Virus record (IMG/VR): IMGVR_UViG_2565956710_000002 | Direction: 5' to 3' (one strand) | Source of the DNA: a virus | Taxonomy: Duplodnaviria; Heunggongvirae; Uroviricota; Caudoviricetes | Length of the DNA: 14,827 nucleotides | Shown here: positions 1,369 to 14,827 of the stretch, one piece after another | Layout: every line of letters starts with the position of its first letter | How positions within the stretch are numbered: the first letter of the stretch is position 1 | Notes under the pieces: generated by a model | What the model saw: the letters and a program-made list of their open reading frames with translations, nothing else | What the model was told of the DNA's origin: nothing | Database searches by the model: none | Program-made: the position numbers and the translations under genes

Positions 1369-1444
1369 GCCGATATAGCTCAGTTGGTAGAGCAGCGCAT
1401 TCGTAATGCGAAGGTCGTAGGTTCGACTCCTATTATCGGCACCA
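1369..1444 (+). tRNA. thrW: tRNA-Thr, anticodon CGU
   Basis: 76-nt sequence GCCGATATAGCTCAGTTGGTAGAGCAGCGCATTCGTAATGCGAAGGTCGTAGGTTCGACTCCTATTATCGGCACCA. It has a 7-bp acceptor stem (GCCGATA/TATCGGC), D-loop AGCTCAGTTGGTAGAGC, anticodon loop with CGT, T-loop GGTTCGACTCC and an encoded CCA. Position after proA matches E. coli thrW. Confidence 0.95.
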
Positions 1445-1445
1445 T
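1421..1445. repeat. att core direct repeat, copy 1 (3' end of tRNA-Thr)
   Basis: 25-bp GTTCGACTCCTATTATCGGCACCAT is repeated exactly at 14311-14335. The arms adjacent to both copies share motifs (CCCAAGTC, ATTTAAAAAC). Confidence 0.8.
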
Positions 1446-1558
1446 CACCTAGTTTTCCCAAGTCAACCCACATCAACAAAATCATTTAAAAACATATATA
1501 TTACGTTGTTTTCATACGTTTGAGGTCAACCCTTGTCTCTTGAAATCAACACGCTGTT

Positions 1559-1607
1559 GGGGGCACAATCAGGGGCATGTTCTGTTCGGTCTAGGAAATG
1601 TGCCCCC
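1559..1607 (+). promoter_or_regulatory. 9-bp perfect inverted repeat in the integrase leader, ending 1 nt before the int start codon
   Basis: GGGGGCACA at 1559-1567 and TGTGCCCCC at 1599-1607. A related G-run/C-run arrangement sits upstream of the second integrase (14449-14487). Confidence 0.35.
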
Positions 1608-1608
1608 A

Positions 1609-2799
1609 ATGATGCTGAATGCCCGCAAGGTTGAAGCTGCGAAAGGAAAAGAGAAGAGCTACAAGCTGTTTGATGGAGGTGGCCTATACCTTCAGGTCGA
1701 ACCTAATGGCTCGCGTTACTGGCGTATGAAATACCGTTTTGCTGGTAAAGAGAAACGATTGTCCTTTGGTGTTTATCCAACAGTCACACTTGCTGATGCC
1801 AGACAAAAACGAGAAGACGCGAAGAAACTACTCGCAGCAGGTGAAGATCCCGGCGAAGTCAAAAAAGCCAAAAAGCAGGCTTTAAATGCAGCGAGTGAGA
1901 CACTTAACCCATTCAGAGAAGTGGCGTTAGAGTGGCACAAAATGAAATCACCCAAATGGTCTGAGGGCTATGCTTCCGACATCATTGAGGCATTCGAGAA
2001 AGACATTTTCCCGCATATTGGGCACAGACCTATAGCTGATATTCAGCCCCTTGAACTGCTTGAAGTTCTGAGGTTGATAGAAGCTCGAGGCGCTATGGAG
2101 AAAGCGAAGAAAGTCCGTCAGCGATGCGGTGAAGTTTTTCGCTATGCCATCGTAACGGGTAGGGCAATCTACAATCCGGCACCGGATCTTGCCAGTGTGA
2201 TGCAAGGACATGAAGCAGTCCACTATCCATTCCTCAAAGCCAACGAACTACCGGAGTTCTTTAATGCCCTTAATTCTTATTCAGGAAGTCCAATTGTATT
2301 GTTGGGGGCGCATTTACTTATCCTGACAGGTCTACGAACTGGAGAACTACGAGCAGGTGAGTGGCGAGAGGTGGATTTTGATAATGCGGTGTGGGAGATC
2401 CCAAAAGAACGTATGAAAATGCGTAGGAGCCATATTGTCCCGTTGTCAAAACAAGCATTATCCCATCTCAAAAGTTTGAAAGAACTAACTGGGAACTACC
2501 CGCTGATGTTCCCTGGACGCAACGATCCCAGCAAATTTATGAGTGAAGCAAGCATTAATCAGGTGTTTAAACGTATTGGATATGCAGGGCGTGTTACGGG
2601 GCATGGTTTCAGGCATACGATGAGTACAATCCTACATGAGAAAGGATTTAACAGCGCTTGGATTGAAACCCAGCTTGCTCATTCGGACAAAAACTCTATT
2701 CGTGGAATTTATAACCATGCCCAATATCTCGAAGGGAGAAGAGAAATGATGCAATGGTATGCTAATTATTTATCTGAGCAAATTGGTACTCATAAATGA
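1609..2799 (+). CDS. int: tyrosine recombinase, P4-type integrase
   Basis: The ORF track gives 1540-2799 from a TTG; I place the start at the ATG at 1609 (MMLNARKVEAAKGKEKSYKLFDGGGLYL...) because it aligns with the N-terminus of the second integrase at 14489 (MKLNARQIDTAKPKEKAYKLADGGGLYL). The C-terminal catalytic region has HxxR (GHGFRHT) and the family layout. Sits next to the tRNA att site. Confidence 0.9.
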   Translation: MMLNARKVEAAKGKEKSYKLFDGGGLYLQVEPNGSRYWRMKYRFAGKEKRLSFGVYPTVTLADARQKREDAKKLLAAGEDPGEVKKAKKQALNAASETLNPFREVALEWHKMKSPKWSEGYASDIIEAFEKDIFPHIGHRPIADIQPLELLEVLRLIEARGAMEKAKKVRQRCGEVFRYAIVTGRAIYNPAPDLASVMQGHEAVHYPFLKANELPEFFNALNSYSGSPIVLLGAHLLILTGLRTGELRAGEWREVDFDNAVWEIPKERMKMRRSHIVPLSKQALSHLKSLKELTGNYPLMFPGRNDPSKFMSEASINQVFKRIGYAGRVTGHGFRHTMSTILHEKGFNSAWIETQLAHSDKNSIRGIYNHAQYLEGRREMMQWYANYLSEQIGTHK

Positions 2800-3620
2800 A
2801 TATTTTAAAAATTAATAATACTGATTCTCTGCTCAGAGATTACTACCAGTTGGATGAAGCTTCAGAAAAAATTGGTTGTAGTGAAAAGGATATACTCTGG
2901 TTTGCCAGAGAACGAGATGTAGAGCTATGCATGGAATTCCATGATGATGAGTATGATGTTTCATGTGGTTTGAAGATTGATGGTCAAATGGATGAGTTCT
3001 TATCTAATCTGAAATATTTACCACGAGATAGAAATGGCAATATTATGTTGTCAGACTTAAGTTCTATAAGAATCCCTGATGAAGATAATTTAATTGATAA
3101 AAATGGTTTTATTCGATGCTTCATATCCGGTTTATGGGCTGTTGATTATGAATATAAAGATCTGTTAGTTAAGCATGAGGGGCAACCGGATTCCTGGCCT
3201 ATTCATTTTCTACTGGCGGGTACGCCTAATATAAATTGTAAGGTAATTCTTTATGTAAATTATGATGAAAAAGAAAATTATTATCTTTTTGAGGTTTTGT
3301 GGATTACAAAGGTACAGATTCAAAAATTCATTGATATAGTCTTATGCGAACAAAAGCGGATAAAAAACGCCAATAAATATAAATCACAATCTGAGGCGCA
3401 AAAACAAAAACATGCTGTTCCTCGAGCTGAAATACTCATGGCTATTATTTCGCTCTATCATCGTGATATGAGGCTAAGAAGAGAGAGTCCAGCAGCGATA
3501 GCTGATTATCTTTTTCAACATGCCAGTGAGTTCTGGCCTAAGACCGGAGAACCGCCTTTGAGCTATGATACTGTTGTTAGTTTGCTACGTAGTTGCATGA
3601 AAAACATTAAGTTTAACTAA
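2796..3620 (+). CDS. hypothetical protein (274 aa), AT-rich, translationally coupled to int
   Basis: ATG at 2796 overlaps the int stop (ATGA). Strongly AT-rich compared with int and alpha (judged by eye, not computed). No motif I recognise. Confidence 0.7.
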   Translation: MNILKINNTDSLLRDYYQLDEASEKIGCSEKDILWFARERDVELCMEFHDDEYDVSCGLKIDGQMDEFLSNLKYLPRDRNGNIMLSDLSSIRIPDEDNLIDKNGFIRCFISGLWAVDYEYKDLLVKHEGQPDSWPIHFLLAGTPNINCKVILYVNYDEKENYYLFEVLWITKVQIQKFIDIVLCEQKRIKNANKYKSQSEAQKQKHAVPRAEILMAIISLYHRDMRLRRESPAAIADYLFQHASEFWPKTGEPPLSYDTVVSLLRSCMKNIKFN

Positions 3621-3745: not shown

Positions 3746-4036
3746 ATGTTATCTAAACATGATAATACTACTTTGCAACGACCTTCAATGGATTCTCTGA
3801 TCGATATGAAGTTTATTACTTCCGATTGTTTATTAAGTGATAAATGGATTTATCGATTGATTTCTCTGAATCGCTTTCCAAAACCTATAAAAATAGGTCG
3901 GATGTCACGATGGCGCGCTGCTGATTATTATAAGTGGCGAGATGGGTTTGAAGAAAACTCAGGTCAACAGTTTGAGGGGATGAGAAATAAGGCAAGAGCA
4001 ATTAATAAAGGGAATAGATTATCACCTACTCCCTAA
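3746..4036 (+). CDS. AlpA/Vis-like helix-turn-helix regulator (prophage excisionase-like)
   Basis: Segment MKFITSDCLLSDKWIYRLISLNRFPKPIKIGRMSRWRAADYYKW resembles the AlpA family HTH (FPKPIKxG-RSxRW...W). GGAG lies 8 nt upstream of the ATG at 3746. An inverted repeat GTGGCTAATGA/TCATTAGTCAC (3635-3671) is upstream. Confidence 0.65.
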   Translation: MLSKHDNTTLQRPSMDSLIDMKFITSDCLLSDKWIYRLISLNRFPKPIKIGRMSRWRAADYYKWRDGFEENSGQQFEGMRNKARAINKGNRLSPTP

Positions 4037-4373: not shown

Positions 4374-4550
4374 ATGGCTAAACAGAAGTGTACCTGGTTA
4401 TTTGCGGCGATCAACCGCAGTCAACGCAATGCCCGTCCTGTGATGTTAAGGATCACCGCAGATAACGAGCGGTCAGCGCGGCGCAGACTTGCCCCGGACT
4501 ATGTACTGAGCTTTGCCGGGCGCATTCCCTGCGGAGGTGAACATGCGTAA
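4374..4550 (+). CDS. small protein (58 aa), first gene of early operon; function unknown
   Basis: ATG at 4374 with AGAGG 8 nt upstream. Translation: MAKQKCTWLFAAINRSQRNARPVMLRITADNERSARRRLAPDYVLSFAGRIPCGGEHA. The stop overlaps the next gene's start region. Not in the ORF track (under 60 aa). Confidence 0.45.
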   Translation: MAKQKCTWLFAAINRSQRNARPVMLRITADNERSARRRLAPDYVLSFAGRIPCGGEHA

Positions 4551-4933: not shown

Positions 4934-5218
4934 ATGAATATTTCAAACGGGCACAACGGTGCTCAGGGCCACACTTTGCCTGAAAAACACAATACCGGTG
5001 TTTTTGCCTATGGGTTGTCAGAGGACAGTTTCGGAAAGCTGACCCGCGCAAGAAATGCCTGCGACATGCTCCAGCTTCTCTTTTCTGAATACCCGTCTCA
5101 GGCCGGAGCACTGGACACTGGCTGTGCGCATGGTGTCGCCGCGCTGATGGAGTACCTGCTGGCAGATTTGACGGATATTGCACACAGCTGCGCACTGATT
5201 GAAGGAGGTTCCAGATGA
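4934..5218 (+). CDS. hypothetical protein (94 aa), early operon
   Basis: ATG at 4934 with GGAG upstream; the stop overlaps the next start (ATGA at 5215-5218). Confidence 0.6.
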   Translation: MNISNGHNGAQGHTLPEKHNTGVFAYGLSEDSFGKLTRARNACDMLQLLFSEYPSQAGALDTGCAHGVAALMEYLLADLTDIAHSCALIEGGSR

Positions 5219-5598
5219 ACCAGCCGCAGGTTTCCATTTTCCCGGCAGAAATGACCACCGCGCTTTACCGGCGGGCTATTGCTTCAGCATGGCGGCAGAA
5301 AATGCTGAACGAAACTGGCAGTGATCAGTATGGTCCGCACAGCCTGACGGTGGAGCGTATTGAAATGGCCATTGCGCTGCATATCGAGTGCGTACTGATT
5401 AACGAGTACGGCGAAGCACAGGGCGCCGCTGCCGCGCTGGCACTGCTGACTGACATGCTGGAGCCGTCACTGCTGACCGCGCCGCCGGTACTGACCGCGC
5501 GCGGCTGTGAAGTGATGGCGGAGATGTACCGCACGCTTCCGGCGGCCTTTGATGACTTCTGCAGTACCGGTGTGACGTTGTATCAGGGGGAAGTATGA
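5215..5598 (+). CDS. hypothetical protein (127 aa), early operon, coupled to the primase
   Basis: ATG at 5215 preceded by GAAGGAGG. The stop overlaps the alpha start (ATGA at 5595-5598). Confidence 0.65.
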   Translation: MNQPQVSIFPAEMTTALYRRAIASAWRQKMLNETGSDQYGPHSLTVERIEMAIALHIECVLINEYGEAQGAAAALALLTDMLEPSLLTAPPVLTARGCEVMAEMYRTLPAAFDDFCSTGVTLYQGEV

Positions 5599-8267
5599 CA
5601 ATACAGACGGTTACGCAGATTTCAGCCGCCGCACGGGGGAAATGGCCCGTTATTCTCCAGATGCTGCGTATTGATGTACCTGAAAACGGCAGGCACGGTC
5701 CCTGCCCGAAATGTGGGGGCAAGGATCGTTTTCGCCTTGATGACCTTGACGGGCGCGGGACGTGGATCTGCAGCCAGTGTGGCAATGGTGACGGTCTGGA
5801 TCTGGTTAAGCTCGTAACCGGTTACAGCGTCAGAAAGGCTGCGCAGGAGGTGGCGCAGGTGCTTAATGTGCCGGATGTGCAGGAACTGCCTGTTAAGCCT
5901 GCCAGACAAAAAGCCCCTAAACGCGACATGGGTCTTACCGTGGCGGCGCTGATGAAAGAGAGCCACACGGGAGAAAGCGCCTATCTGACAGGAAAAGGGT
6001 TCGCCGGATACCCGGCCTCTCTGACCGGAAGCGTGCAGCATATCAGCGGTAAGGATTTTCCTGCCGGTTCCCTGCTGTTACCACTCACGACCAACACCGG
6101 AGCCGTGACTGGTGCACAGCTTATCGCCCCGACGGGTGAAAAAAGCATACTGCCCGGCAGCACGATGAAAGGCGCGTTTGTGTCGCTCAGCCCGTTACCG
6201 TCTGAACCACCGGTACAGGTGGTGATTACCGAAGGTTACGCTACGGCGCTGACGGTAAGTCAGCTCACTGCCGGATGCGTAGTGGCTGCCATATCTGCGG
6301 GCAACCTGCCCAATGTGGCGCAGTCGCTGCGGGCACGCTGGCCTGAGGTAAAAATTATCATCGCCGGTGATAACGATTTTCAGGACGGAGGTGAGAATCC
6401 CGGCAGAGCCTTTGCTGAACGGGCGGCAAAAGCTGTTGGCGGCTGGATGACGCTGCCACCAGGAGAGATTAAGGCTGACTGGAATGACTTTCATCGGGAG
6501 CACGGTATTACCCGTGCCCGTGAAGCCTTTCGCAACGGTCTGGTACTGTGCGGGGAAGGCCGCACGCAACTGCCGCACGGGTTCCGTCTTACCCAGGAAT
6601 ATCTCTGGTATGAAAAGCAGGTACAGCGCAACGGTGAGACGGAGATCCAGAACGTCAAAATATGCAGCCCGCTGCGCGTGACGGCAATCACCTGCGATGC
6701 CGATGGCGGTAACTTCGGACGACTGCTGGAATGGGAAGATACGTGGGGTGAGTGTCGCCGCTGGGCGATGCCGATGGAAATGCTGAGCGGCAGTGGTGAG
6801 GAACTGCGCCGGGTACTGCTGGTTAACGGGCTGTCTTATATCAGCACCACCGGTGAGGCACGCGCACGCCTGATGGAATATATCTCACTGTGTAAACCGG
6901 AACGCCGCGTGACCTGCGTCAGTCGTACTGGCTGGCATGGTCAGGTTTACGTCCTGCAGGATGAGGTCAGCGGTGAAGGTGCAGAGGGTGTCATTCTCCA
7001 GACCACTTCCGTGCAGGGGCGTGATTTCCGCGTGTCGGGCACAACAGAGGAATGGCGGGAGCATGTATCCCGCTACTGTACCGGCAACTCCCGCGTGGCA
7101 TTTGCTGTCAGCCTGGCCTTTGCTGCACCACTGTTACGGCTGGTTGGTATGGACGGCGGCGGCTACCACCTCAAAGGGGAATCGACAGACGGTAAGACCA
7201 CCACCATGAAAGCGGCAACCTCCGTCTGCGGCGGGCCTGACTACTGGCAGACATGGCGGGCCACCGGCAACGCGCTGGAGGGATGCGCCAGCCGCCGCAA
7301 CGATGCCGCCATGATGCTTGATGAGATCCGGGAAGTTGACGGACGCGAGGCAGGCAATATCGCCTACATGCTGGCAAACGGTCAGGGCAAAGGCCGTGCC
7401 GGTACGGACGGTGAGCTGCGTACCCGTAAGCAGTGGCGCCTGTTGTTCTTTTCAACTGGCGAGTTGTCTCTGACCGAACATGCGGCAAAGGCCGGTGAGC
7501 GTACTTTTGCCGGGATGGAAGTCAGGATGATCCAGATCCCCAGCGATTCCGGGAAGTTTGGCGTTTTTGAGGAGCTGCACGGCTTCGACAGCGGCAAGGC
7601 TCTGGCAGAGCATCTTGAATGGGCCACGTCCTGCTACTACGGTTCGCCGTTCCGGGAGTGGCTGAAAGCACTGACCGCTGATCTTAACGGACTAACGGCA
7701 CAGGCAAAATCGCTGATGAAGGAATATGCTGCCGCCCTGACTCCGAAAGATGCAGGCAATCAGGTGGGCCGGGCTGTGAACCGCTTTGCTCTGGTGGCGA
7801 TGGCAGGTGAACTGGCAACCCGTCTGGGTATCACCGGCTGGCCTGAGGGTGAAGCACTGCGGGCAACCCGCGTCTGCCTGAACGCATGGCTGAAAGATCG
7901 CGGGCACACCGCCAATCAGGAAGATATCGCCGCACTGGAGCAGGTTCGCAGTTTCTTCACCGCGAATCAGTACAGCCGCTTTGCAGACTGGTATGACGAG
8001 CGCAACCGCCCCGGCAATATGGTGGGCTGGCGCAGGGTGGAGAAAGGCAGTACCGCGCAGGGCACGGAAGCTGTCACTACGTTCTATGTCATGCCGTCCG
8101 GCTGGAAAGAAATCTGCAGGGGATTTGACCCGCGCAAGGTGGCGCGTCTGTGCGCAGATCGTGGATACCTGCTGCCCTCCACTGATGGCAAACTCCAGAC
8201 AACCATTCGCCCGCCAGAGATGAATCCCCGCAGGCTCTATGTCTTCAACAGCGAGGTGCCGGGTTAA
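5595..8267 (+). CDS. P4 alpha-type primase-helicase (zinc-ribbon + TOPRIM primase + P-loop NTPase)
   Basis: 890 aa. N-terminal zinc ribbon CPKCGG...CSQCG; TOPRIM motifs ITEGYATAL and IIIAGDNDFQDGGENPG; Walker A GESTDGKTT. An iteron array follows immediately downstream. Confidence 0.9.
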   Translation: MTIQTVTQISAAARGKWPVILQMLRIDVPENGRHGPCPKCGGKDRFRLDDLDGRGTWICSQCGNGDGLDLVKLVTGYSVRKAAQEVAQVLNVPDVQELPVKPARQKAPKRDMGLTVAALMKESHTGESAYLTGKGFAGYPASLTGSVQHISGKDFPAGSLLLPLTTNTGAVTGAQLIAPTGEKSILPGSTMKGAFVSLSPLPSEPPVQVVITEGYATALTVSQLTAGCVVAAISAGNLPNVAQSLRARWPEVKIIIAGDNDFQDGGENPGRAFAERAAKAVGGWMTLPPGEIKADWNDFHREHGITRAREAFRNGLVLCGEGRTQLPHGFRLTQEYLWYEKQVQRNGETEIQNVKICSPLRVTAITCDADGGNFGRLLEWEDTWGECRRWAMPMEMLSGSGEELRRVLLVNGLSYISTTGEARARLMEYISLCKPERRVTCVSRTGWHGQVYVLQDEVSGEGAEGVILQTTSVQGRDFRVSGTTEEWREHVSRYCTGNSRVAFAVSLAFAAPLLRLVGMDGGGYHLKGESTDGKTTTMKAATSVCGGPDYWQTWRATGNALEGCASRRNDAAMMLDEIREVDGREAGNIAYMLANGQGKGRAGTDGELRTRKQWRLLFFSTGELSLTEHAAKAGERTFAGMEVRMIQIPSDSGKFGVFEELHGFDSGKALAEHLEWATSCYYGSPFREWLKALTADLNGLTAQAKSLMKEYAAALTPKDAGNQVGRAVNRFALVAMAGELATRLGITGWPEGEALRATRVCLNAWLKDRGHTANQEDIAALEQVRSFFTANQYSRFADWYDERNRPGNMVGWRRVEKGSTAQGTEAVTTFYVMPSGWKEICRGFDPRKVARLCADRGYLLPSTDGKLQTTIRPPEMNPRRLYVFNSEVPG

Positions 8268-8301
8268 GGCTTTGCGTGAGTCTTATTTATTAAGGGTAAC
8301 A

Positions 8302-8489
8302 GGTGAAACAGGTGGAACAACCGTATTTTACAGGGCTGAACCTGTTCCACCTTCTGAAATAGTGAGGTGGAACAGATGTAACGCCAGCCAATCCGCTGTT
8401 CCACCTTGTTACCCGCGATGTTCCACCGGTGCAGTGTATATAAATGTCTTATAAAACAAAGCCGTAACACATGTTTCACCTGTTCCACC
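8302..8489. repeat. iteron array (TGTTCCACC/GGTGGAACA x8), putative alpha-binding origin (ori/crr-like)
   Basis: Copies at 8302-8310 (variant GGTGAAACA), 8311-8319, 8343-8351, 8366-8374, 8397-8405, 8419-8427, 8472-8480 (variant TGTTTCACC) and 8481-8489, in both orientations. An AT-rich stretch lies at 8431-8470. Phage P4 ori/crr use TGTTCACC octamers bound by alpha. Confidence 0.6.
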
Positions 8490-8577
8490 GCATCAGGGAC
8501 ATAAAGCAGACTGAAACAGAGGGCATTTTTATCTGGCTGGCTTTCATAGCCACGCCTGAATAACCGCAAGCGCCCGT

Positions 8578-8633
8578 TGTGCCAGCCACCACACACTGAA
8601 CACCGATAGTGTGCTTGTGTCAGCCACGACACA
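8578..8633 (+). promoter_or_regulatory. putative Delta/Ogr-dependent late promoter (two TGT-N12-ACA dyads) upstream of the sid-like gene
   Basis: TGT-GCCAGCCACCAC-ACA at 8578-8595 and TGT-GTCAGCCACGAC-ACA at 8616-8633. The centres are 38 bp apart and 81 and 43 bp upstream of the ATG at 8668, consistent with about -55 and -17 relative to a start near 8642. There is no good -35. Confidence 0.45.
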
Positions 8634-8667
8634 ATTGACGTAACGAACCAACCCGACAGGAGAAGTC

Positions 8668-9411
8668 ATGAACAATACCGCAGTAAATAACAACCTTTCC
8701 ACTTTTCCGGCTGTAACGCAGCGGGCACTGGAAACCATGAACACAGCCAGAAACGCATGGCTTGAAGCACGTCGTCAGCAGAAAGCGGCAGCGGATAATA
8801 TTGCGACAATCCGCCAGCGTCGCGCTGAAATGGAAGCCACGACGAACACACTGAATGAGGAGTGGCGCACGCTGTTTCGTGAAAGTCAGGGCGTGGTCTC
8901 AAAGGAAATGAAAAAACTGCGCACGGAAATTGCGCTGGGACGAGAAACGCTTGAGGATTTTGATGAGCTGCTGGCGGCTCAGGAAAGCGAAAATGCACTT
9001 TTGCCGCAGAAAGCTGCAGAATTAGCCGGAAAGTATATCCACGCGCATAACATTCTTGTGGATATTCGCGCAAAACAAATCTGGGAGGATTTTATGCAGT
9101 CGCATGGAAAAGCGCTTATTCAGACGCTGAGCCTGCTTAAATCCACAATGGGCCGGGAAGCCAGTGCCGTTGTGGGTGTGGTGAATTCAGTTAATGACCC
9201 GGACACAGTGCTGAAAGACTTTATTCATAAACATATCACCAGACCGGCTCTGGCTAACGATGCGATGCCTGAGCAGGACCCGGTGTTTAAACTGGCGGGA
9301 GTTGCCCCGGATTATGCGGCGCGTCTGGATTTCAGTAATCAACTCTCTCCGGCAGCTATGCATAAAATTAAGGTTCGTCAGGAACTTGCTGAGAAGGAGA
9401 AAGCAGTATGA
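8668..9411 (+). CDS. putative Sid-like capsid size-determination/external scaffold protein (assignment tentative)
   Basis: 247 aa, helical/coiled-coil-like composition, first gene after the late-promoter dyads. Size and position match P4 Sid. AGGAG 5 nt upstream of the ATG. Confidence 0.6.
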   Translation: MNNTAVNNNLSTFPAVTQRALETMNTARNAWLEARRQQKAAADNIATIRQRRAEMEATTNTLNEEWRTLFRESQGVVSKEMKKLRTEIALGRETLEDFDELLAAQESENALLPQKAAELAGKYIHAHNILVDIRAKQIWEDFMQSHGKALIQTLSLLKSTMGREASAVVGVVNSVNDPDTVLKDFIHKHITRPALANDAMPEQDPVFKLAGVAPDYAARLDFSNQLSPAAMHKIKVRQELAEKEKAV

Positions 9412-9959
9412 CGGCCCGAGGCACGCCTGACCAGGCACTTACCAGTTTTCGGAATGCCCGCATTCTGTGGGCCGGACATAATGAGAGCCGAAAAGCCGTT
9501 GAACAACAGATAACATCTCTCCTCGCTGCCACAGAAAAACCAGCAGATTATGCCCGACAGCTCGAATTACTGCGGGAACGTCTGGATGTGCTGAAATGGC
9601 AAATTAACTGTGCTGCGCGCGAATGCATTTACTCGCAGCATTTACTGATGGAGGCCTGCACAGAAGCCGCTCTCAGCAATTTTATGCAGGCGAATGGGGC
9701 AGCCCTGACATCTGCACTGGCTCCGTTCCTGAAGGGGCGCGGAGGGGTTGACGTTGCGTCCCGTATATTACGCAGTGCTCTGGTTCGCCAGCTGGCAATA
9801 ACACCGCCTGAAATTGCTGGGGATTATCGTGAGATCCTGGATGAATCCGGTTTGATGCCTGACCCCGGGATGATTCGTGATTGCCAGGGTTCTTACACCC
9901 CGGCACAACATCTGCGTTTTCAGCAACGCCTGAATGACATTAACGATATACAGGAGTGA
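9408..9959 (+). CDS. putative Psu-like protein (polarity suppression / capsid decoration); assignment tentative
   Basis: 183 aa, start overlaps the upstream stop (ATGA). Segments KWQINCAAREC, FMQANGAALTSALAPFL and YTPAQHLRF match my recollection of P4 Psu. Sits between the sid-like and ogr/delta-like genes. Confidence 0.6.
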   Translation: MTARGTPDQALTSFRNARILWAGHNESRKAVEQQITSLLAATEKPADYARQLELLRERLDVLKWQINCAARECIYSQHLLMEACTEAALSNFMQANGAALTSALAPFLKGRGGVDVASRILRSALVRQLAITPPEIAGDYREILDESGLMPDPGMIRDCQGSYTPAQHLRFQQRLNDINDIQE

Positions 9960-9964
9960 TATTA

Positions 9965-10237
9965 ATGGCACTTAAATGTCCGGAATGCGGTACAGTTGCA
10001 CACGCCAGAACAGCAGCCTATGAAGCTCCGTCAGTTAAACGCTCGTGGTATCAGTGCCAGAATCTGGAATGTTCCTGCACATTTACGGCACTGGAGAGTG
10101 TGGATAAGATAATCATGAAACCCCGGCGCAATGAACAGGAACCAGACAAATCACAACCCCCGGTAAAACAACAGCAAACGCTCAATCGCTATGGCTCCGC
10201 GTCAAAACTGTCAAGCCGTCAGCAGATTCCTGTCTGA
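9965..10237 (+). CDS. Ogr/Delta-family zinc-finger late transcription activator
   Basis: MALKCPECGTVAHARTAAYEAPSVKRSWYQCQNLECSCTFTALESVDKIIMKP matches P2 Ogr (CPxC...AHART...YQCQN..CS.TF..ESV..I.KP). GGAG lies 8 nt upstream of the ATG at 9965; the ORF track begins 9 nt earlier at a GTG. Confidence 0.85.
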   Translation: MALKCPECGTVAHARTAAYEAPSVKRSWYQCQNLECSCTFTALESVDKIIMKPRRNEQEPDKSQPPVKQQQTLNRYGSASKLSSRQQIPV

Positions 10238-10631: not shown

Positions 10632-11909
10632 ATGAACCGTCAGCCGTTTACTTCAGCAGCACTTAAACGAAACTTAAGTGAAAGTGAGAAGGCTTATTAT
10701 TTTAAAAAAAATAATGTTGCTGAGTTAGAATCATTAATTAGTGATGCCGTTTTAATTGCTAATGAGAATTTTCGCTCTGGTGTGAGTGTAAAGAAACTAA
10801 ATATTAAGGGACGCTGCGTTTACACTGCTTCATGTTTGAAGGAAAAAATAATACTTAGACATTGCAATGCAAATTTAAAATGCCTTGAATCGCTTCGTCC
10901 CAAACAACGAAATACAATAATTAGTGAGCTTAAAATTTATTTGGAAGAAGGTACTCCATTCAAAATATATCGTTTGGATATAAAGTCTTTCTTTGAATCA
11001 ATTGATTTACCGCAGCTTTTTCAGCTCTTACATAACGAAACACGACTGTCTAGACATACAAAAAATTTGCTAGAATGGTATCTTAAATCGTGTGAAAGGC
11101 TTCACTCTTCGAAAGGATTACCTAGAGGGTTAGAAATTAGTCCTATGTTATCAGAATTGTACTTGGCACAATTTGATAATAGTATTCATAGGCATCCAGA
11201 AGTATTTTATTATTCAAGATTTGTAGATGATATGGTAATCGTTTCAAGTGGTTGTGAATGTGAAGCGTCCTTTATGGAATTTATACAAGATGTATTACCA
11301 AAGGGATTGGCTTTAAATAAAAATAAATTAAAAATATCTCCATGCATACCAAAGAGAAGTAAGGGTTCAAATAAACAGGATAAATTGCTTCATGAATTTG
11401 ACTTTCTAGGGTACTCGTTTTCTATAATAGACACACCTTTGAGCAAAGATGGTGAGATTAATAGCTGTTACAGAAAGGTTGTTGTTAATTTATCTAAATC
11501 TCGCCTGAAGAAAATTAAAACAAGAATAGCTAGGTCTTTCTACTCTTATCATATTAATGGTGATTTTAAACTATTGCTAGACAGGATTTCTTTTTTGACT
11601 AGCAACAGGGATTTAAATCGCAAAATAAAATCGTTAAGTTCTTTAGAAAAAAGCAAGATAAGTACAGGTATTTATTACAGTAATGCGAAGTTAGATGTTG
11701 ACTCCATATCCCTAAAAAAATTAGATGACTTTTTGCTATATTGTGTGCAATCTAATACTGGGCGTTTGAATAGTGTTGCAAAAAAACCTTTTAATTTGAA
11801 GCAAAAAAAAGAACTGCTAAGAAATAGTTTTAGAAAAGGCTTTGTGGATAGAGTATATAGAAAGTATAACTTTAAGCGCTATACTGAGATTACAAAAATA
11901 TGGTTATAA
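10632..11909 (+). CDS. reverse transcriptase 1 (425 aa), first gene of dual-RT operon; UG3-like by architecture (unverified)
   Basis: RT motifs read from the translation: motif 2 YRLDIKSFFESID (D116), motif 4 GLPRGLEISPMLSELYLAQFD, motif 5 FVDD (D199-D200, nt 11226-11231), motif 7 FDFLGYSF, plus a ~170-aa C-terminal extension. Strongly AT-rich. Overlaps the next gene by 10 nt. Confidence 0.85.
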   Translation: MNRQPFTSAALKRNLSESEKAYYFKKNNVAELESLISDAVLIANENFRSGVSVKKLNIKGRCVYTASCLKEKIILRHCNANLKCLESLRPKQRNTIISELKIYLEEGTPFKIYRLDIKSFFESIDLPQLFQLLHNETRLSRHTKNLLEWYLKSCERLHSSKGLPRGLEISPMLSELYLAQFDNSIHRHPEVFYYSRFVDDMVIVSSGCECEASFMEFIQDVLPKGLALNKNKLKISPCIPKRSKGSNKQDKLLHEFDFLGYSFSIIDTPLSKDGEINSCYRKVVVNLSKSRLKKIKTRIARSFYSYHINGDFKLLLDRISFLTSNRDLNRKIKSLSSLEKSKISTGIYYSNAKLDVDSISLKKLDDFLLYCVQSNTGRLNSVAKKPFNLKQKKELLRNSFRKGFVDRVYRKYNFKRYTEITKIWL

Positions 11910-13918
11910 AGAAAAACATTAAACTTGATAAGAAAGATTATCTCAGGGCTTTACTATGTGATACACTGCCCGGTGATTGTCCAATTATTTTTTCAAATGA
12001 TGGCTTATATATAAACTTAACAGAATATGATAGAGTTTGTAATGATTTGTTACATTTTACTCCGGTTTCTTCTTTCTTAAAAAAAATAGTTAACCCTAAT
12101 TTAGACTCTTCTATTAGTGTCGCAGATCGCCACCGAGAAAAGAAGAAACAAAGCTCCCCATTTGGCTATTGTATAGTAAAAGATGCCTTTAGCCAAAGAC
12201 ATCTTTCTTTAATTCACCCAAGATCTCAAATTAATTATTCGGAATTTTATAAAACATACTCATCCGTTATCACATTAAATACTTTAAAAAGTAATTTTTC
12301 TATTCGCTACCCACGTAAGGTCGCTAACTCTTTCTTTTTATATGAAAATAATGCTTTGGAAAAATATAAAGGGGAAGATATCGAAACAACAAAGGATGAG
12401 TTAATGAGGAAATATTCATCCTCTTATTTTAGTTATGGCGGTTTCAACAGGATATATAAACTATTTCAAAGTAAGATGTTTATTGAGCTTGAGAAAAGAT
12501 TCTCGGTGATGTGGATGTTAGATGTATCACATTGTTTTGATAGCATATATACGCATTCGGTTTCTTGGGCATTAAAAAATAAATCATATATCAAAAAACA
12601 TGTTAAACACAGCAATCAATTTGGACAAGAATTAGATACACTGATGCAACGTAGCAATAATAATGAAACAAATGGAATACCTATTGGTTCAGAGTTTAGC
12701 AGGGTTTTTGCAGAATTAATATTTCAGCGAATTGATTGCAATATTGAGTCATGCCTTCTTAGTGAACATGGATGGGTTAATAATAAAGATTATGTTATAT
12801 TGAGATATGTAGATGATTTTATTGTTTTTTGTAATGGTGAGTCAAGTGCCGAAGTTATTACAAAAATAATTAATGTGAAGTTAAATGAATATAATCTACA
12901 ATTAAATGTAAACAAGCTTAAGAAGTATTCTAGGCCATTTTGCACTAGCAAGACAAGTTTGATTGTCAAAGTTAATGAATTAATTCGCAATTTAGAAATT
13001 AAACTGTATGAAAAACGTGATAGTGGCTTTACTTTAAATAAAATAAGAAGTAAGCATGATTTAAAGATATATGTAATTAATCATGTCAAGTCTATATGCA
13101 TTGAAAATCAAGTGTCTTATTCTGATGTTTCATCATATATAATATCATCTCTTTCCAAAAGATTAATATCAATAATTGATATATTACGAGTTCAAGAAAA
13201 TGAAGATGATGTAGATGTAAAAAAAAGGATTAAGGACTTAATTTTCACAATAACCGATATTATGTTGTTCTTTTTCAGTGTTAACCCAACTGTTTCATCA
13301 TCTTATAAATTATCAAAGACAATGGTTGTTGTTAATAACTATTTGAATGAAATATCTAGTGACTATAGTAGTATTTTTATGACTACGTTAGTGAATACTG
13401 CGGAAAACATTAATTTTGGTGAGAATGATAATGGGCTGTTTATTGATGATTTCATTTCAATTGAAAAGGTTAATTTAATCTTGGCTGCTACTTTTTTTGG
13501 AGATAATTATCTTATAAGTGACAGTTTTTTTCATGGAGTTATACATAAAAAGAAATTGGACTACTTTACTATAATCTCACTGCTATTCTATTTTAGAAAC
13601 AGAAGATCATTCCGAAAATTGAAGTGTATAATAGAGGGTGAAATAAAGGAAATATTAAGTTCTAATATGGATTTGCTGCAATCATCGGAAAAGGCACATT
13701 TATTTTTGGATGTCATGTCATGTCCATTTGTCTCAATAGAGACAAGGCGTTTTTTATATAGAAAATATCTCAAGAGCTATGAGCCAAAGCTGAACAGAAG
13801 TCATCTGGAGATTGAGAATGATTTGCAATCTCTGCTTCAAACATATTGGTTTGTCAAGTGGGATGAGTTAGATATTGTGAAAATGATTGAGAAAAAAGAA
13901 TTGAAAGAAAGCTATTAA
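11900..13918 (+). CDS. reverse transcriptase 2 (672 aa), second gene of dual-RT operon; UG8-like by architecture (unverified)
   Basis: Motif 2 WMLDVSHCFDSIY (D208), motif 4 GIPIGSEFSRVFAELIFQRID, motif 5 YVDD (D305-D306, nt 12812-12817). About 200 aa N-terminal and 350 aa C-terminal extensions with no recognisable nuclease domain. ATG at 11900 overlaps the upstream stop at 11907-11909. Confidence 0.85.
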   Translation: MVIKKNIKLDKKDYLRALLCDTLPGDCPIIFSNDGLYINLTEYDRVCNDLLHFTPVSSFLKKIVNPNLDSSISVADRHREKKKQSSPFGYCIVKDAFSQRHLSLIHPRSQINYSEFYKTYSSVITLNTLKSNFSIRYPRKVANSFFLYENNALEKYKGEDIETTKDELMRKYSSSYFSYGGFNRIYKLFQSKMFIELEKRFSVMWMLDVSHCFDSIYTHSVSWALKNKSYIKKHVKHSNQFGQELDTLMQRSNNNETNGIPIGSEFSRVFAELIFQRIDCNIESCLLSEHGWVNNKDYVILRYVDDFIVFCNGESSAEVITKIINVKLNEYNLQLNVNKLKKYSRPFCTSKTSLIVKVNELIRNLEIKLYEKRDSGFTLNKIRSKHDLKIYVINHVKSICIENQVSYSDVSSYIISSLSKRLISIIDILRVQENEDDVDVKKRIKDLIFTITDIMLFFFSVNPTVSSSYKLSKTMVVVNNYLNEISSDYSSIFMTTLVNTAENINFGENDNGLFIDDFISIEKVNLILAATFFGDNYLISDSFFHGVIHKKKLDYFTIISLLFYFRNRRSFRKLKCIIEGEIKEILSSNMDLLQSSEKAHLFLDVMSCPFVSIETRRFLYRKYLKSYEPKLNRSHLEIENDLQSLLQTYWFVKWDELDIVKMIEKKELKESY

Positions 13919-14310: not shown

Positions 14311-14335
14311 GTTCGACTCCTATTATCGGCACCAT
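14311..14335. repeat. att core direct repeat, copy 2 (junction between the two tandem elements)
   Basis: Exact 25-bp copy of the tRNA 3' end (1421-1445), followed by arm motifs similar to those after copy 1. Confidence 0.8.
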
Positions 14336-14488: not shown

Positions 14489-14827
14489 GTGAAACTCAAT
14501 GCCCGTCAAATAGACACTGCCAAGCCAAAAGAGAAGGCTTACAAGTTGGCTGATGGTGGTGGTCTGTACCTCCTGGTAAAACCTGGTGGAGGAGAATATT
14601 GGCGTCTCAAGTATCGTGTAGCTGGTAAAGAGAAGCTGTTAGCACTAGGTGTGTATCCTGAGGTCACCTTAGCTGATGCTCCTGCAAAACTTGAAGAAGC
14701 TAAAAGAGGTATCTCTGGGGGAATCGATCTGATGGAAGTGAAGCGAGAGGAAAAGATTGCCCGGGAAACGCAGTTAAACAACACCTTCAAAGATATTGCC
14801 CTTGAGTGGCACAGTAACAAATTATAA
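14489..14827 (+). CDS. second P4-type integrase, N-terminal 112 codons ending at an in-frame TAA (likely truncated or disrupted)
   Basis: GTG start. MKLNARQIDTAKPKEKAYKLADGGGLYLLVKPGGGEYWRLKYRVAGKEK aligns with the first integrase N-terminus. Reading frame ends EWHSNKL-TAA at 14825-14827, where the first integrase continues for ~290 more residues. Confidence 0.7.
   Translation: MKLNARQIDTAKPKEKAYKLADGGGLYLLVKPGGGEYWRLKYRVAGKEKLLALGVYPEVTLADAPAKLEEAKRGISGGIDLMEVKREEKIARETQLNNTFKDIALEWHSNKL

Follow-up and report, generated by a model that had tools for sequence, protein, structure and literature searches.

A Probable PICI/SaPI-Type Replication Origin Beside the Primase-Helicase Gene of a P4-Like Satellite

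Described origins and the satellite in the window

In theta plasmids such as pSC101, R6K, RK2, and P1, a winged-helix initiator binds short repeats located beside an AT-rich unwinding element, and the iterons and the initiator co-evolve and set both specificity and incompatibility. The Rep proteins of these plasmids are not helicases and depend on DnaA, DnaB, and DnaC, and iteron arrays are commonly used in copy control as well. In the satellite P4, the alpha protein binds the type I repeats, TGTTCACC, according to the GenBank annotation of P4 and to a title cited in PMC8628076, and the same annotation gives the cluster lying just downstream of the alpha gene as crr, a cis-acting element that is not the start site. 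The Rep proteins of SaPIs recognize their iterons via a C-terminal winged helix, and the SaPI ori is composed of 6 to 12 iterons situated directly 3' of rep, with an AT-rich center and at least two opposed iterons on each side (PMC9371898). The origins of Escherichia coli PICIs follow the same plan as the SaPI ori, and in EcCICFT073 rep and ori drive plasmid replication, which is abolished by the deletion of either rep or ori (PMC6092414). P4 and the PICIs have been termed "fundamentally different" (PMC6092414).

The window analyzed in the present study, a stretch of 14,827 nucleotides, holds a complete integrated 12.9-kb P4-like satellite, which resides in tRNA-Thr and is bounded by a 25-bp direct repeat (Table 1). 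The core set of P4-like satellites, i.e., int, alpA, an alpha-like primase gene, sid, psu, and delta, is present, and the product of the sid-like gene is 24% identical to P4 Sid (E 1e-12) and matches phrog_6165 (E 9e-93), an assignment in line with the RefSeq annotation of a near-identical locus. A homologue of epsilon/ash was not identified in the element, and the 19-nt cohesive end (cos) of P4 has no match in the window even when 3 or 4 mismatches are allowed; a divergent cos is possible. Downstream of the replicase gene lies an array of short repeats at 8293-8489, which is very probably the vegetative replication origin of the satellite and, together with the replicase, would make up a Rep-ori module of the PICI/SaPI type. 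The anatomy of the array, its conservation in the family, its non-coding status, the concerted change of its iterons, their covariation with the winged helix of the replicase, and the homology of the replicase to initiators known to bind iterons are seen directly in the data.

Table 1. Features of the satellite and of the region around the iteron array, with positions in the window
Feature	Position	Strand	Remarks
attL, 3' end of tRNA-Thr(CGU)	1421-1445	+	left boundary; tRNA at 1369-1444
P4-type integrase gene	1540-2799	+	
AlpA-like gene	3746-4036	+	
Icd-like gene	~4374-4550	+	annotated in a near-identical RefSeq locus
DUF5375 gene (P4 orf106 family)	5215-5598	+	
Replicase (primase-helicase) gene, 890 aa	5595-8267	+	Pfam, BLASTP, and PDB sequence matches
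Winged-helix coding region (aa 836-890)	8100-8264	+	proposed iteron reader; includes K866, wing base
Intergenic region with iteron array			400 bp between replicase and sid-like genes
Left outer tandem set, 9-bp spacing	8293-8319	+	AGGGTAACA (degenerate), GGTGAAACA, GGTGGAACA
Iteron TGTTCCACC	8343-8351	+	reversed relative to left set; conserved copy at ~+77 in relatives
Iteron GGTGGAACA, then decayed tandem copy GATGTAACG	8366-8383	+	
Inner right-facing set	8397-8427	+	TGTTCCACC, TGTTACCCG (degenerate), TGTTCCACC
AT-rich stretch	8428-8471		proposed DNA unwinding element; GC 0.25-0.34
Right outer tandem set, TGTTTCACC-TGTTCCACC	8472-8489	+	inverted partner of 8302-8319
Psid-type late promoter	8578-8633	+	two TGT-N12-ACA (Ogr/Delta-type) sites; outside the proposed origin, adjoining it
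sid-like gene	8668-9411	+	first of helper-exploitation operon (sid, psu, ogr/delta)
Psu gene	9408-9959	+	Pfam Psu
Ogr/Delta zinc-finger protein gene	9956-10237	+	Ogr_Delta match
Defense genes DRT3a and DRT3b	10632-13918	+	
attR	14311-14335	+	right boundary; exact 25-bp repeat of the tRNA-Thr 3' end

The iteron array, its surroundings, and its conservation

A search of the window for TGTTCCACC with up to one mismatch returned eight sites at 8302-8489, six exact and two reading TGTTTCACC, which start at 8302 (-, TGTTTCACC), 8311 (-), 8343 (+), 8366 (-), 8397 (+), 8419 (+), 8472 (+, TGTTTCACC), and 8481 (+). Outside the array, the sole match in the 14.8-kb window lies at 3-11. Over the whole window, about 2.6 such matches are expected by chance, and 9 were not reached in any of 200 shuffles; eight copies in 188 bp are far beyond chance because the window-wide rate would give only ~0.03 per 188 bp. 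Alignment with relatives revealed three degenerate copies in register with the copies of those relatives, AGGGTAACA at 8293-8301, GATGTAACG at 8375-8383, and TGTTACCCG at 8407-8415, by which the array is extended to 8293-8489. The copy at 8375-8383 has decayed in the window, and its counterpart reads GGTGGAACG in the close relatives L004 and L005 and GGTGTAACG in class B loci, which are defined below. The array thus starts 26 bp past the stop codon of the replicase gene if the degenerate copy is counted, or 35 bp past it if not. When the copies are read as GGTGGAACA, their orientations follow the order + + - + - - (AT-rich stretch) - -, and the arrangement is asymmetric, with six confident copies to the left of the AT-rich stretch and two to the right; the two outer tandem pairs, 8302-8319 and 8472-8489, constitute an 18-nt inverted repeat.

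The GC content falls to 0.25-0.30 over 8430-8479, and within the intergenic region stability is lowest for the 30-mer at 8432-8461, with a dG of -31.1 versus a window mean of -39.7, which places it in the top 3.3% of the window. The AT-rich stretch is therefore only moderately unstable, and the element has more AT-rich DNA elsewhere. In most relatives, the 40-mer with the lowest GC content occupies the matching relative position, about +145 to +210 from the stop codon.

Two ORFs of the window overlap the repeats, 8264-8632 on the minus strand and 8239-8454 on the plus strand, and their existence is what would allow the repeats to lie inside a real gene. That reading can be practically dismissed, however, because only the window and the 100%-identical locus L032 keep the minus-strand frame uninterrupted across the array, this frame is already broken in 98%-identical relatives, and no reading frame is consistently open across the array in 50 loci. 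Neither ORF has a Pfam match above threshold or a PHROG match, and no CDS is annotated in the intergenic region of the near-identical RefSeq locus, so coding was rejected for both. A known RNA family at the array was likewise rejected, since Rfam has no match in the intergenic region and yields only the tRNA in the window. What the sequence-only reading had described at the DNA level stands: the search recovered exactly its eight copies (six exact, two with one mismatch) in both orientations within ~190 bp, the AT-rich stretch that it placed at 8431-8470 between the repeats is real but moderate, the minus-strand ORF that it doubted is non-coding, and the repeats do not fall within a conserved coding gene.

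The occurrence of the array was surveyed in 55 genome loci, 60 viral contigs, and 80 metagenome contigs, whose encoded replicase relatives are 56-100% identical. A short word repeated on both strands was found in all 150 distinct downstream segments, within 260 bp past the stop codon in 146 of them; in the other four it is shifted by ~1.1 kb, behind an inserted tyrosine-recombinase-like ORF. An apparent loss of the array in three loci proved false when the array was located ~1.1 kb downstream. As a null, windows inside replicase genes were inspected, and 598 of 599 contained three or fewer copies of any 8-mer. Measured from the stop codon, the family layout is composed of a tandem set at +26/35/44, which is the counterpart of the left outer set of the window, a reversed copy at ~+77, copies at ~+99/108 and at ~+128-147, an AT-rich stretch at ~+145-200, and a reversed tandem set at ~+192-220. 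The relatives keep the 9-bp spacing of the outer tandem sets, their opposite orientation, the inner copies, and the AT-rich stretch ahead of the set on the right.

The word that is repeated, on the other hand, is specific to each lineage: GGTGGAACA, GGTGTAACA, GGGGTAACA, CTGGTAACA, GTGGTAACA, GTGGGAACA, GTGGATACA, TGTAGTACA, and others were found. Between class A, to which the window belongs, and class B, whose replicases are 91% identical to those of class A, the aligned high-match copies have all changed from G to T at the same position, whereas the spacers have diverged freely and the degenerate copies did not undergo the switch. Such concerted change is what would be expected for sites that co-evolve with one binding protein. 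In the loci L050 and L051, the replicase gene lacks the Toprim primase and encodes only the DUF927 and C-terminal domains, and the same arrays are kept; for this reason the helicase plus C-terminal part is the candidate binder of the iterons.

The array is confined to a single cluster. From attL to attR no second, crr-like cluster was found, the degenerate form GGTNNAACA matching only the eight array sites and an isolated one at 10162, and the flanks of related loci likewise contain no second iteron cluster. These results bear on the possibility that the array is a replicase-binding control region, working in the manner of crr or through handcuffing or incompatibility, with initiation taking place elsewhere. 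The annotation of the P4 cluster just downstream of alpha as crr, and not as the start site, speaks for such a role, as does the common use of iteron arrays in copy control. Against it, in addition to the lack of a second cluster, the AT-rich stretch sits between opposed iteron sets inside the array, and the homologous arrays of PICIs and SaPIs are themselves origins (PMC6092414, PMC9371898). We consider a pure control region quite improbable. The choice between origin and crr that was initially offered for this array does not apply to it, in that one cluster with a PICI/SaPI-type layout occupies both the crr slot and the ori1 slot.

The intergenic region is bipartite, with the iteron array followed, 88 bp after its end, by the first Delta/Ogr site of a separate Psid-type late promoter. 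The ATG at 8668 follows the ends of the two TGT-N12-ACA sites of this promoter, 8578-8595 and 8616-8633, by 72 and 34 nt, and the geometry is the same in P4, in which the Psid sites are located at 9493-9510 and 9531-9548 and the ATG of sid at 9583; the relatives keep TGT and ACA, and the N12 varies. Scans of 8150-8750 found neither a sigma-70 promoter nor an intrinsic terminator. It is conceivable from this setting that the repeats are transcriptional operators, which would autoregulate or terminate the replicase operon or gate the late promoter, and whose binder could be a protein other than the replicase: the array has an operon on either side and is only 88 bp upstream of the first Delta/Ogr site, and since the scan detected no intrinsic terminator downstream of the replicase gene, another mechanism may limit read-through. 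Yet the Delta/Ogr sites are a conserved motif separate from the iterons, the array stays with the replicase gene in the locus L006, where an Ogr-like gene replaces sid downstream, and the type of iteron covaries with the winged helix of the replicase, as described in the next section. An operator function in place of an origin is therefore very unlikely, and a regulatory role of the array could coexist with its function as an origin.

The replicase and residue 866 of its winged helix

The replicase is composed of a Zn-ribbon plus Toprim primase resembling that of P4 alpha (aa 5-316), a DUF927 helicase, and a C-terminal domain; Pfam identified Zn_Ribbon_Prim, Toprim_3, and DUF927 (E 2e-90). The catalytic motifs are all intact, and the Walker A motif (G528-T536), the four Zn cysteines, and the Toprim residues E213 and D259-D261 do not vary among the family members. 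The helicase core matches the PDB sequences of SaPIbov1 Rep (8tch, E 4.5e-15) and SCCmec Cch (5dgk, E 2.9e-13), and when a profile of the C-terminal family was searched against PDB sequences, nothing was returned. An AlphaFold2 model of residues 638-890, built from a shallow alignment of 58 sequences that are all at least 55% identical to the query, has a mean pLDDT of 79, rising above 90 over the last ~100 residues. Fold searches with the C-terminal model led to the same two proteins, SaPIbov1 Rep and SCCmec Cch, at 11-15% identity in the fold alignments, and the modeled winged helix superposes on a DNA-bound winged helix. By sequence and fold, the helicase core and the C-terminal domain are thus homologous to those of SaPI Rep and SCCmec Cch.

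The relationship with P4 alpha is of a different extent. BLASTP aligned the two proteins over residues 5-316 of the replicase only (321 aligned positions, 38% identity, E 1e-48). Pfam assigns Zn-ribbon, Toprim, D5_N, DUF5906, and the origin-binding Pox_D5 (PF03288) to P4 alpha, and detected no D5_N, DUF5906, or Pox_D5 (PF03288) in the replicase. The P4 alpha origin-binding domain was absent among the fold-search matches listed, and a profile-profile comparison (hhalign) of the C-terminal family of the replicase with that of P4 alpha gave a probability of 0.1%, so that no homology of the winged helix to that domain was detectable. Because the likeness is confined to the N-terminal primase and the hhalign probability is so low, the binding of repeats by P4 alpha cannot be transferred to the replicase by homology.

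In an alignment of 44 replicases with about 900 columns, a single column, that of residue 866, separates two super-groups of iterons. Lys866 occurs with words of the form GG(T/G)G(G/T)AACA and Arg866 with xTGG-type and other words; across 62 unique combinations of protein and iteron, no word is common to the Lys and Arg groups, and three loci outside the set from which the rule was derived, L039, L047, and L056, conform to it. In the helicase-core tree, residue 866 changes state four or more times, and the iteron changes with it on every occasion. In the model, this residue sits at the wing base, immediately ahead of the first strand of the hairpin. Two pairs of replicases that are ~97% identical, L023/L024 and L025/L028, carry different iterons. 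Beyond residue 300, the first pair differs at 13 positions, 5 of which are in the last 57 residues, and the second at 6 positions, 4 of which are in the last 57 residues, so that a disproportionate share of the differences falls in this segment; position 846 is changed in both pairs, and either 866 or 867 is changed in each.

The candidate specificity residues would be Lys/Arg866 and possibly also residue 846, with which the recognition helix begins, and in a tentative code for iteron positions 1-4, NG(T/G)G would pair with Lys and N(T/A)GG with Arg. For iteron position 5, at which class A has G and class B has T, no simple residue rule was found, and no clean separation of the two classes was seen among the residues of the wing and the recognition helix. 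The association of residue 866 with the iterons is no proof of contact because fewer than 200 bp separate the winged-helix segment from the array, so that recombination could exchange both at once, and it could partly reflect this physical linkage.

Relation to P4, PICIs, and SaPIs

The satellite resembles P4 as a replicon with one multifunctional protein (primase, helicase, and predicted origin binding), and its array is downstream of the primase gene, as crr is in P4, and upstream of a Psid promoter of identical geometry, as ori1 is. The repeated words are nearly identical, TGTTCACC in P4 and TGTTCCACC in the window. These likenesses raise the possibility of common descent for the array and P4 ori1/crr, in which case an alpha-type domain would bind the array and the octamer would have been expanded by one base. 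The two words do differ by a single inserted base, the distance from the last iteron to the first Delta site (88 bp versus 79 bp in P4) and the geometry of Psid agree with common ancestry, the N-terminal primase is homologous to that of alpha, and the wings are alike by eye (KLQTTI versus GIQTNL), this being the very 8-column match that hhalign selects and that we treated as not significant. The helicase family and the origin-binding domain, however, differ: the replicase is without Pox_D5, D5_N, and DUF5906, its hhalign probability is negligible, and its listed fold matches are SaPI Rep and Cch. At the DNA level, the type I octamer has no exact copy in the array of the window or in any related array locus, the array region has no similarity to phage records, P4 included, and blastn of the whole window against P4 matched only int-related segments. 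The flanking sets are inverted here and direct in P4 ori1, and P4 has ori1 and crr 4.5 kb apart in contrast with the single cluster of the window. Because the word of the window is one of at least eight in the family, its closeness to the P4 word may be a coincidence. Descent from the P4 elements thus appears unlikely.

The sequence-only reading had proposed an alpha-binding origin or cis-replication region with an iteron one base longer than that of P4. Its call of an origin has held up through the layout, conservation, covariation, and homology described above, and its premise of binding by an alpha-type protein has not, given that the likeness is limited to residues 5-316. The notion of an expanded P4 system finds no support in view of the different C-terminal domain, the hhalign result, and the absence of the exact octamer, and comparison with P4, along the lines that it had suggested, shows no DNA similarity in the array region.

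The features of a PICI/SaPI Rep-ori module were found instead: a DUF927 initiator, a C-terminal winged helix, an ori position 3' of rep, and opposed iterons with an AT-rich stretch. As in the pri-rep-ori arrangement of the Gram-negative PICI EcCICFT073, to which the locus is likened by published layout, the proposed origin comes directly 3' of a fused primase-initiator gene, and as in E. coli PICIs, opposed sets of iterons stand on either side of an AT-rich region and one direction of transcription runs through int, alpA, pri-rep, ori, and the phage-interference genes. The SaPI initiator-helicases SaPIbov1 Rep, SaPI1 Rep1, and SaPI5 PriRep5 belong to the nearest known systems, and SaPI5 PriRep5 also has a fused primase-Rep arrangement, the likeness here being one of arrangement. 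Differences exist as well. Unlike that of PICIs, the interference module of the satellite is P4 sid, psu, and ogr/delta, without the PICI capsid and packaging genes, and the satellite also has a homologue of P4 DUF5375 (orf106); the iterons of SaPIs are 5-6 bp in contrast with 9 bp in the window, and the P4-like element of the window belongs to a Gram-negative host.

A further relative, L059, is a 12-kb circular PICI-like plasmid with int, PerC, and Icd-like genes and a Toprim-DUF927 replicase that is 33.5% identical to that of the window over the full length. Its array starts 24 bp past the stop codon and consists of three GTTGGTTCA spaced at 9 bp, then AT-rich DNA, and then three copies in inverted orientation. 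The array of the window conforms to this plan. Compared with the simple 3+3 arrangement, it is longer and has less symmetry, 8-11 copies being counted in it, inner ones among them.

In the mechanism that we propose for this PICI/SaPI-type origin, on the model of SaPI Rep, the adjacent primase-helicase would recognize the 9-bp iterons via the winged helix at its extreme C-terminus, and two hexamers might assemble on the opposed iteron sets flanking the AT-rich stretch at 8428-8471. We infer that binding, melting, and origin firing occur at the array: the AT-rich stretch would melt, the helicase would load itself, the fused Toprim primase would lay the first primers, and a host polymerase would be responsible for DNA synthesis. 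Unlike the initiators of theta plasmids, that of the window is itself a helicase fused to a primase and, therefore, should load itself. Points that weigh against the proposed origin are the moderate instability of the AT-rich stretch, the six-to-two asymmetry of the array, the decay of one copy in the window, the linkage that could partly underlie the association of residue 866, the iteron length of 9 bp versus 5-6 bp in SaPIs, and the shallow alignment behind the model.

P4-like satellite replication is usually described from P4 alone, and a large branch of these satellites probably uses a PICI/SaPI-type origin and initiator instead, with one origin in place of the two elements that P4 needs. 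The element would be a hybrid, in which the helper-exploitation module and late promoter of P4 are joined to a PICI/SaPI-type replication cassette, and as such it makes the published separation of P4-like satellites from PICIs less sharp (PMC6092414). We tentatively extend this to a broader scheme, which seems to us possible although somewhat doubtful, in which P4-like satellites comprise at least two replicon classes, the present one arising by recombination of the P4 helper module with a PICI/SaPI Rep-ori, and in which a small change of the winged helix re-programs the reading of iterons and gives rise to incompatibility groups. If this is true, re-programming of the iterons would create such groups and permit several satellites to coexist in a cell. 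The natural pairs of iteron and winged helix in L023/L024 and L025/L028 provide material on how a self-loading helicase reads DNA and on the evolution of incompatibility.

The kind of feature described here is already well known, and the example is new. The literature searched contained no account of this origin or of a split between alpha-type and Rep-type P4-like satellites; it likewise yielded nothing on DUF927 in P4-like elements, and searches with the iteron words returned unrelated primer sequences only. The origin should be recognizable in any relative within the first ~250 bp past the DUF927 replicase gene. More than 30% of Enterobacterales genomes have been reported to contain P4-like satellites (PMC8628076), and the array-bearing intergenic region of the window is present in 328 of 5,426 complete E. 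coli genomes, at 90-99.6% identity.

Variant copies within the iteron array

The proposed replication origin, a 9-bp repeat array (window 8293-8489) 3′ of the primase-helicase (replicase) gene, contains two copies that read GGGTAACA / TGTTACCC (window 8293-8301 and 8407-8415) and are unchanged across the arrays of class A, the iteron-word group to which the window belongs, and class B, unlike the main iterons, which differ between these two classes. Both agree with the iteron of class C, GGGGTAACA, and may either be left over from an ancestral word or have another role. The iteron at 8366 is followed in tandem by a further copy (window 8375-8383), which in the window has decayed to GATGTAACG, while the close relatives L004 and L005 read GGTGGAACG at this place; because of this decay, the origin in the window is one iteron short of those of its nearest relatives.

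Replicases and arrays of related loci

The replicase gene or its surroundings differ in several of the loci used for comparison (see table). In L039 a tyrosine recombinase-like ORF has been inserted between the two, and the same insertion is found in L047, L056 and L112, all four loci being of one sub-lineage; in each it shifts the array ~1.1 kb downstream. The replicases of L050 and L051 are without Zn-ribbon or Toprim and carry instead an unrecognised N-terminus of ~130 aa, but the same iteron arrays are retained by both loci. The absence of these two domains next to the same arrays shows that the primase part is exchanged as a module. In L035, L040, L053 and L056 the replicase frame is interrupted, apparently by frameshifts, and the downstream iteron array is still there; this agrees with a published account in which, as P4-like elements decay, the core gene that has become a pseudogene is often the primase (PMC13586616). 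L059 appears to be a PICI-like element on record as a free circular plasmid, and its origin is of the textbook 3+3 iteron form.

Features of the window and of related loci
Feature	Location	Remarks
274-aa ORF	window 2796-3620	start overlaps the integrase stop codon
Two reverse-transcriptase genes	window 10632-13918	antiviral system DRT3a/DRT3b by annotation of a near-identical RefSeq locus
Second P4-type integrase gene, start	window 14489-14827	just past attR; Arm-DNA-binding domain, E 9e-24
335-aa ORF, tyrosine recombinase-like	L039 6649-7656	between replicase gene and iteron array
Rep-only relatives, 689-693 aa	L050 3632-5698; L051 3614-5692	DUF927 and C-terminal domain
L059	NZ_CP148430.1	12,152-bp circular plasmid; int, PerC, Icd-like and AntA/AntB genes, Toprim-DUF927 replicase

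Accessory genes and boundaries of the satellite

The 274-aa ORF had no match in Pfam or PHROG, and its junction with the integrase gene (2789-2822) is the least stable and most AT-rich DNA of the whole window. No match to the P2/P4 cohesive end of 19 nt, GGCGAGGCGGGGAAAGCAC, was present anywhere in the window, even with 3-4 mismatches allowed, although the element has sid, psu and delta; it may have a divergent cos site or depend on a helper other than P2. The DRT3a/DRT3b genes occupy the satellite's defence hotspot position, with the ogr/delta gene on one side and attR on the other.

A direct repeat of 25 bp marks both ends of the element: one copy is the 3′ end of tRNA-Thr(CGU) (1421-1445, within the tRNA region at window 1369-1445) and the other lies at 14311-14335. 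The satellite length measured between these repeats is ~12.9 kb. The integrase gene that begins just outside attR has 78% DNA identity to P4 int, and its location suggests that another island would lie in tandem at the same tRNA-Thr site.
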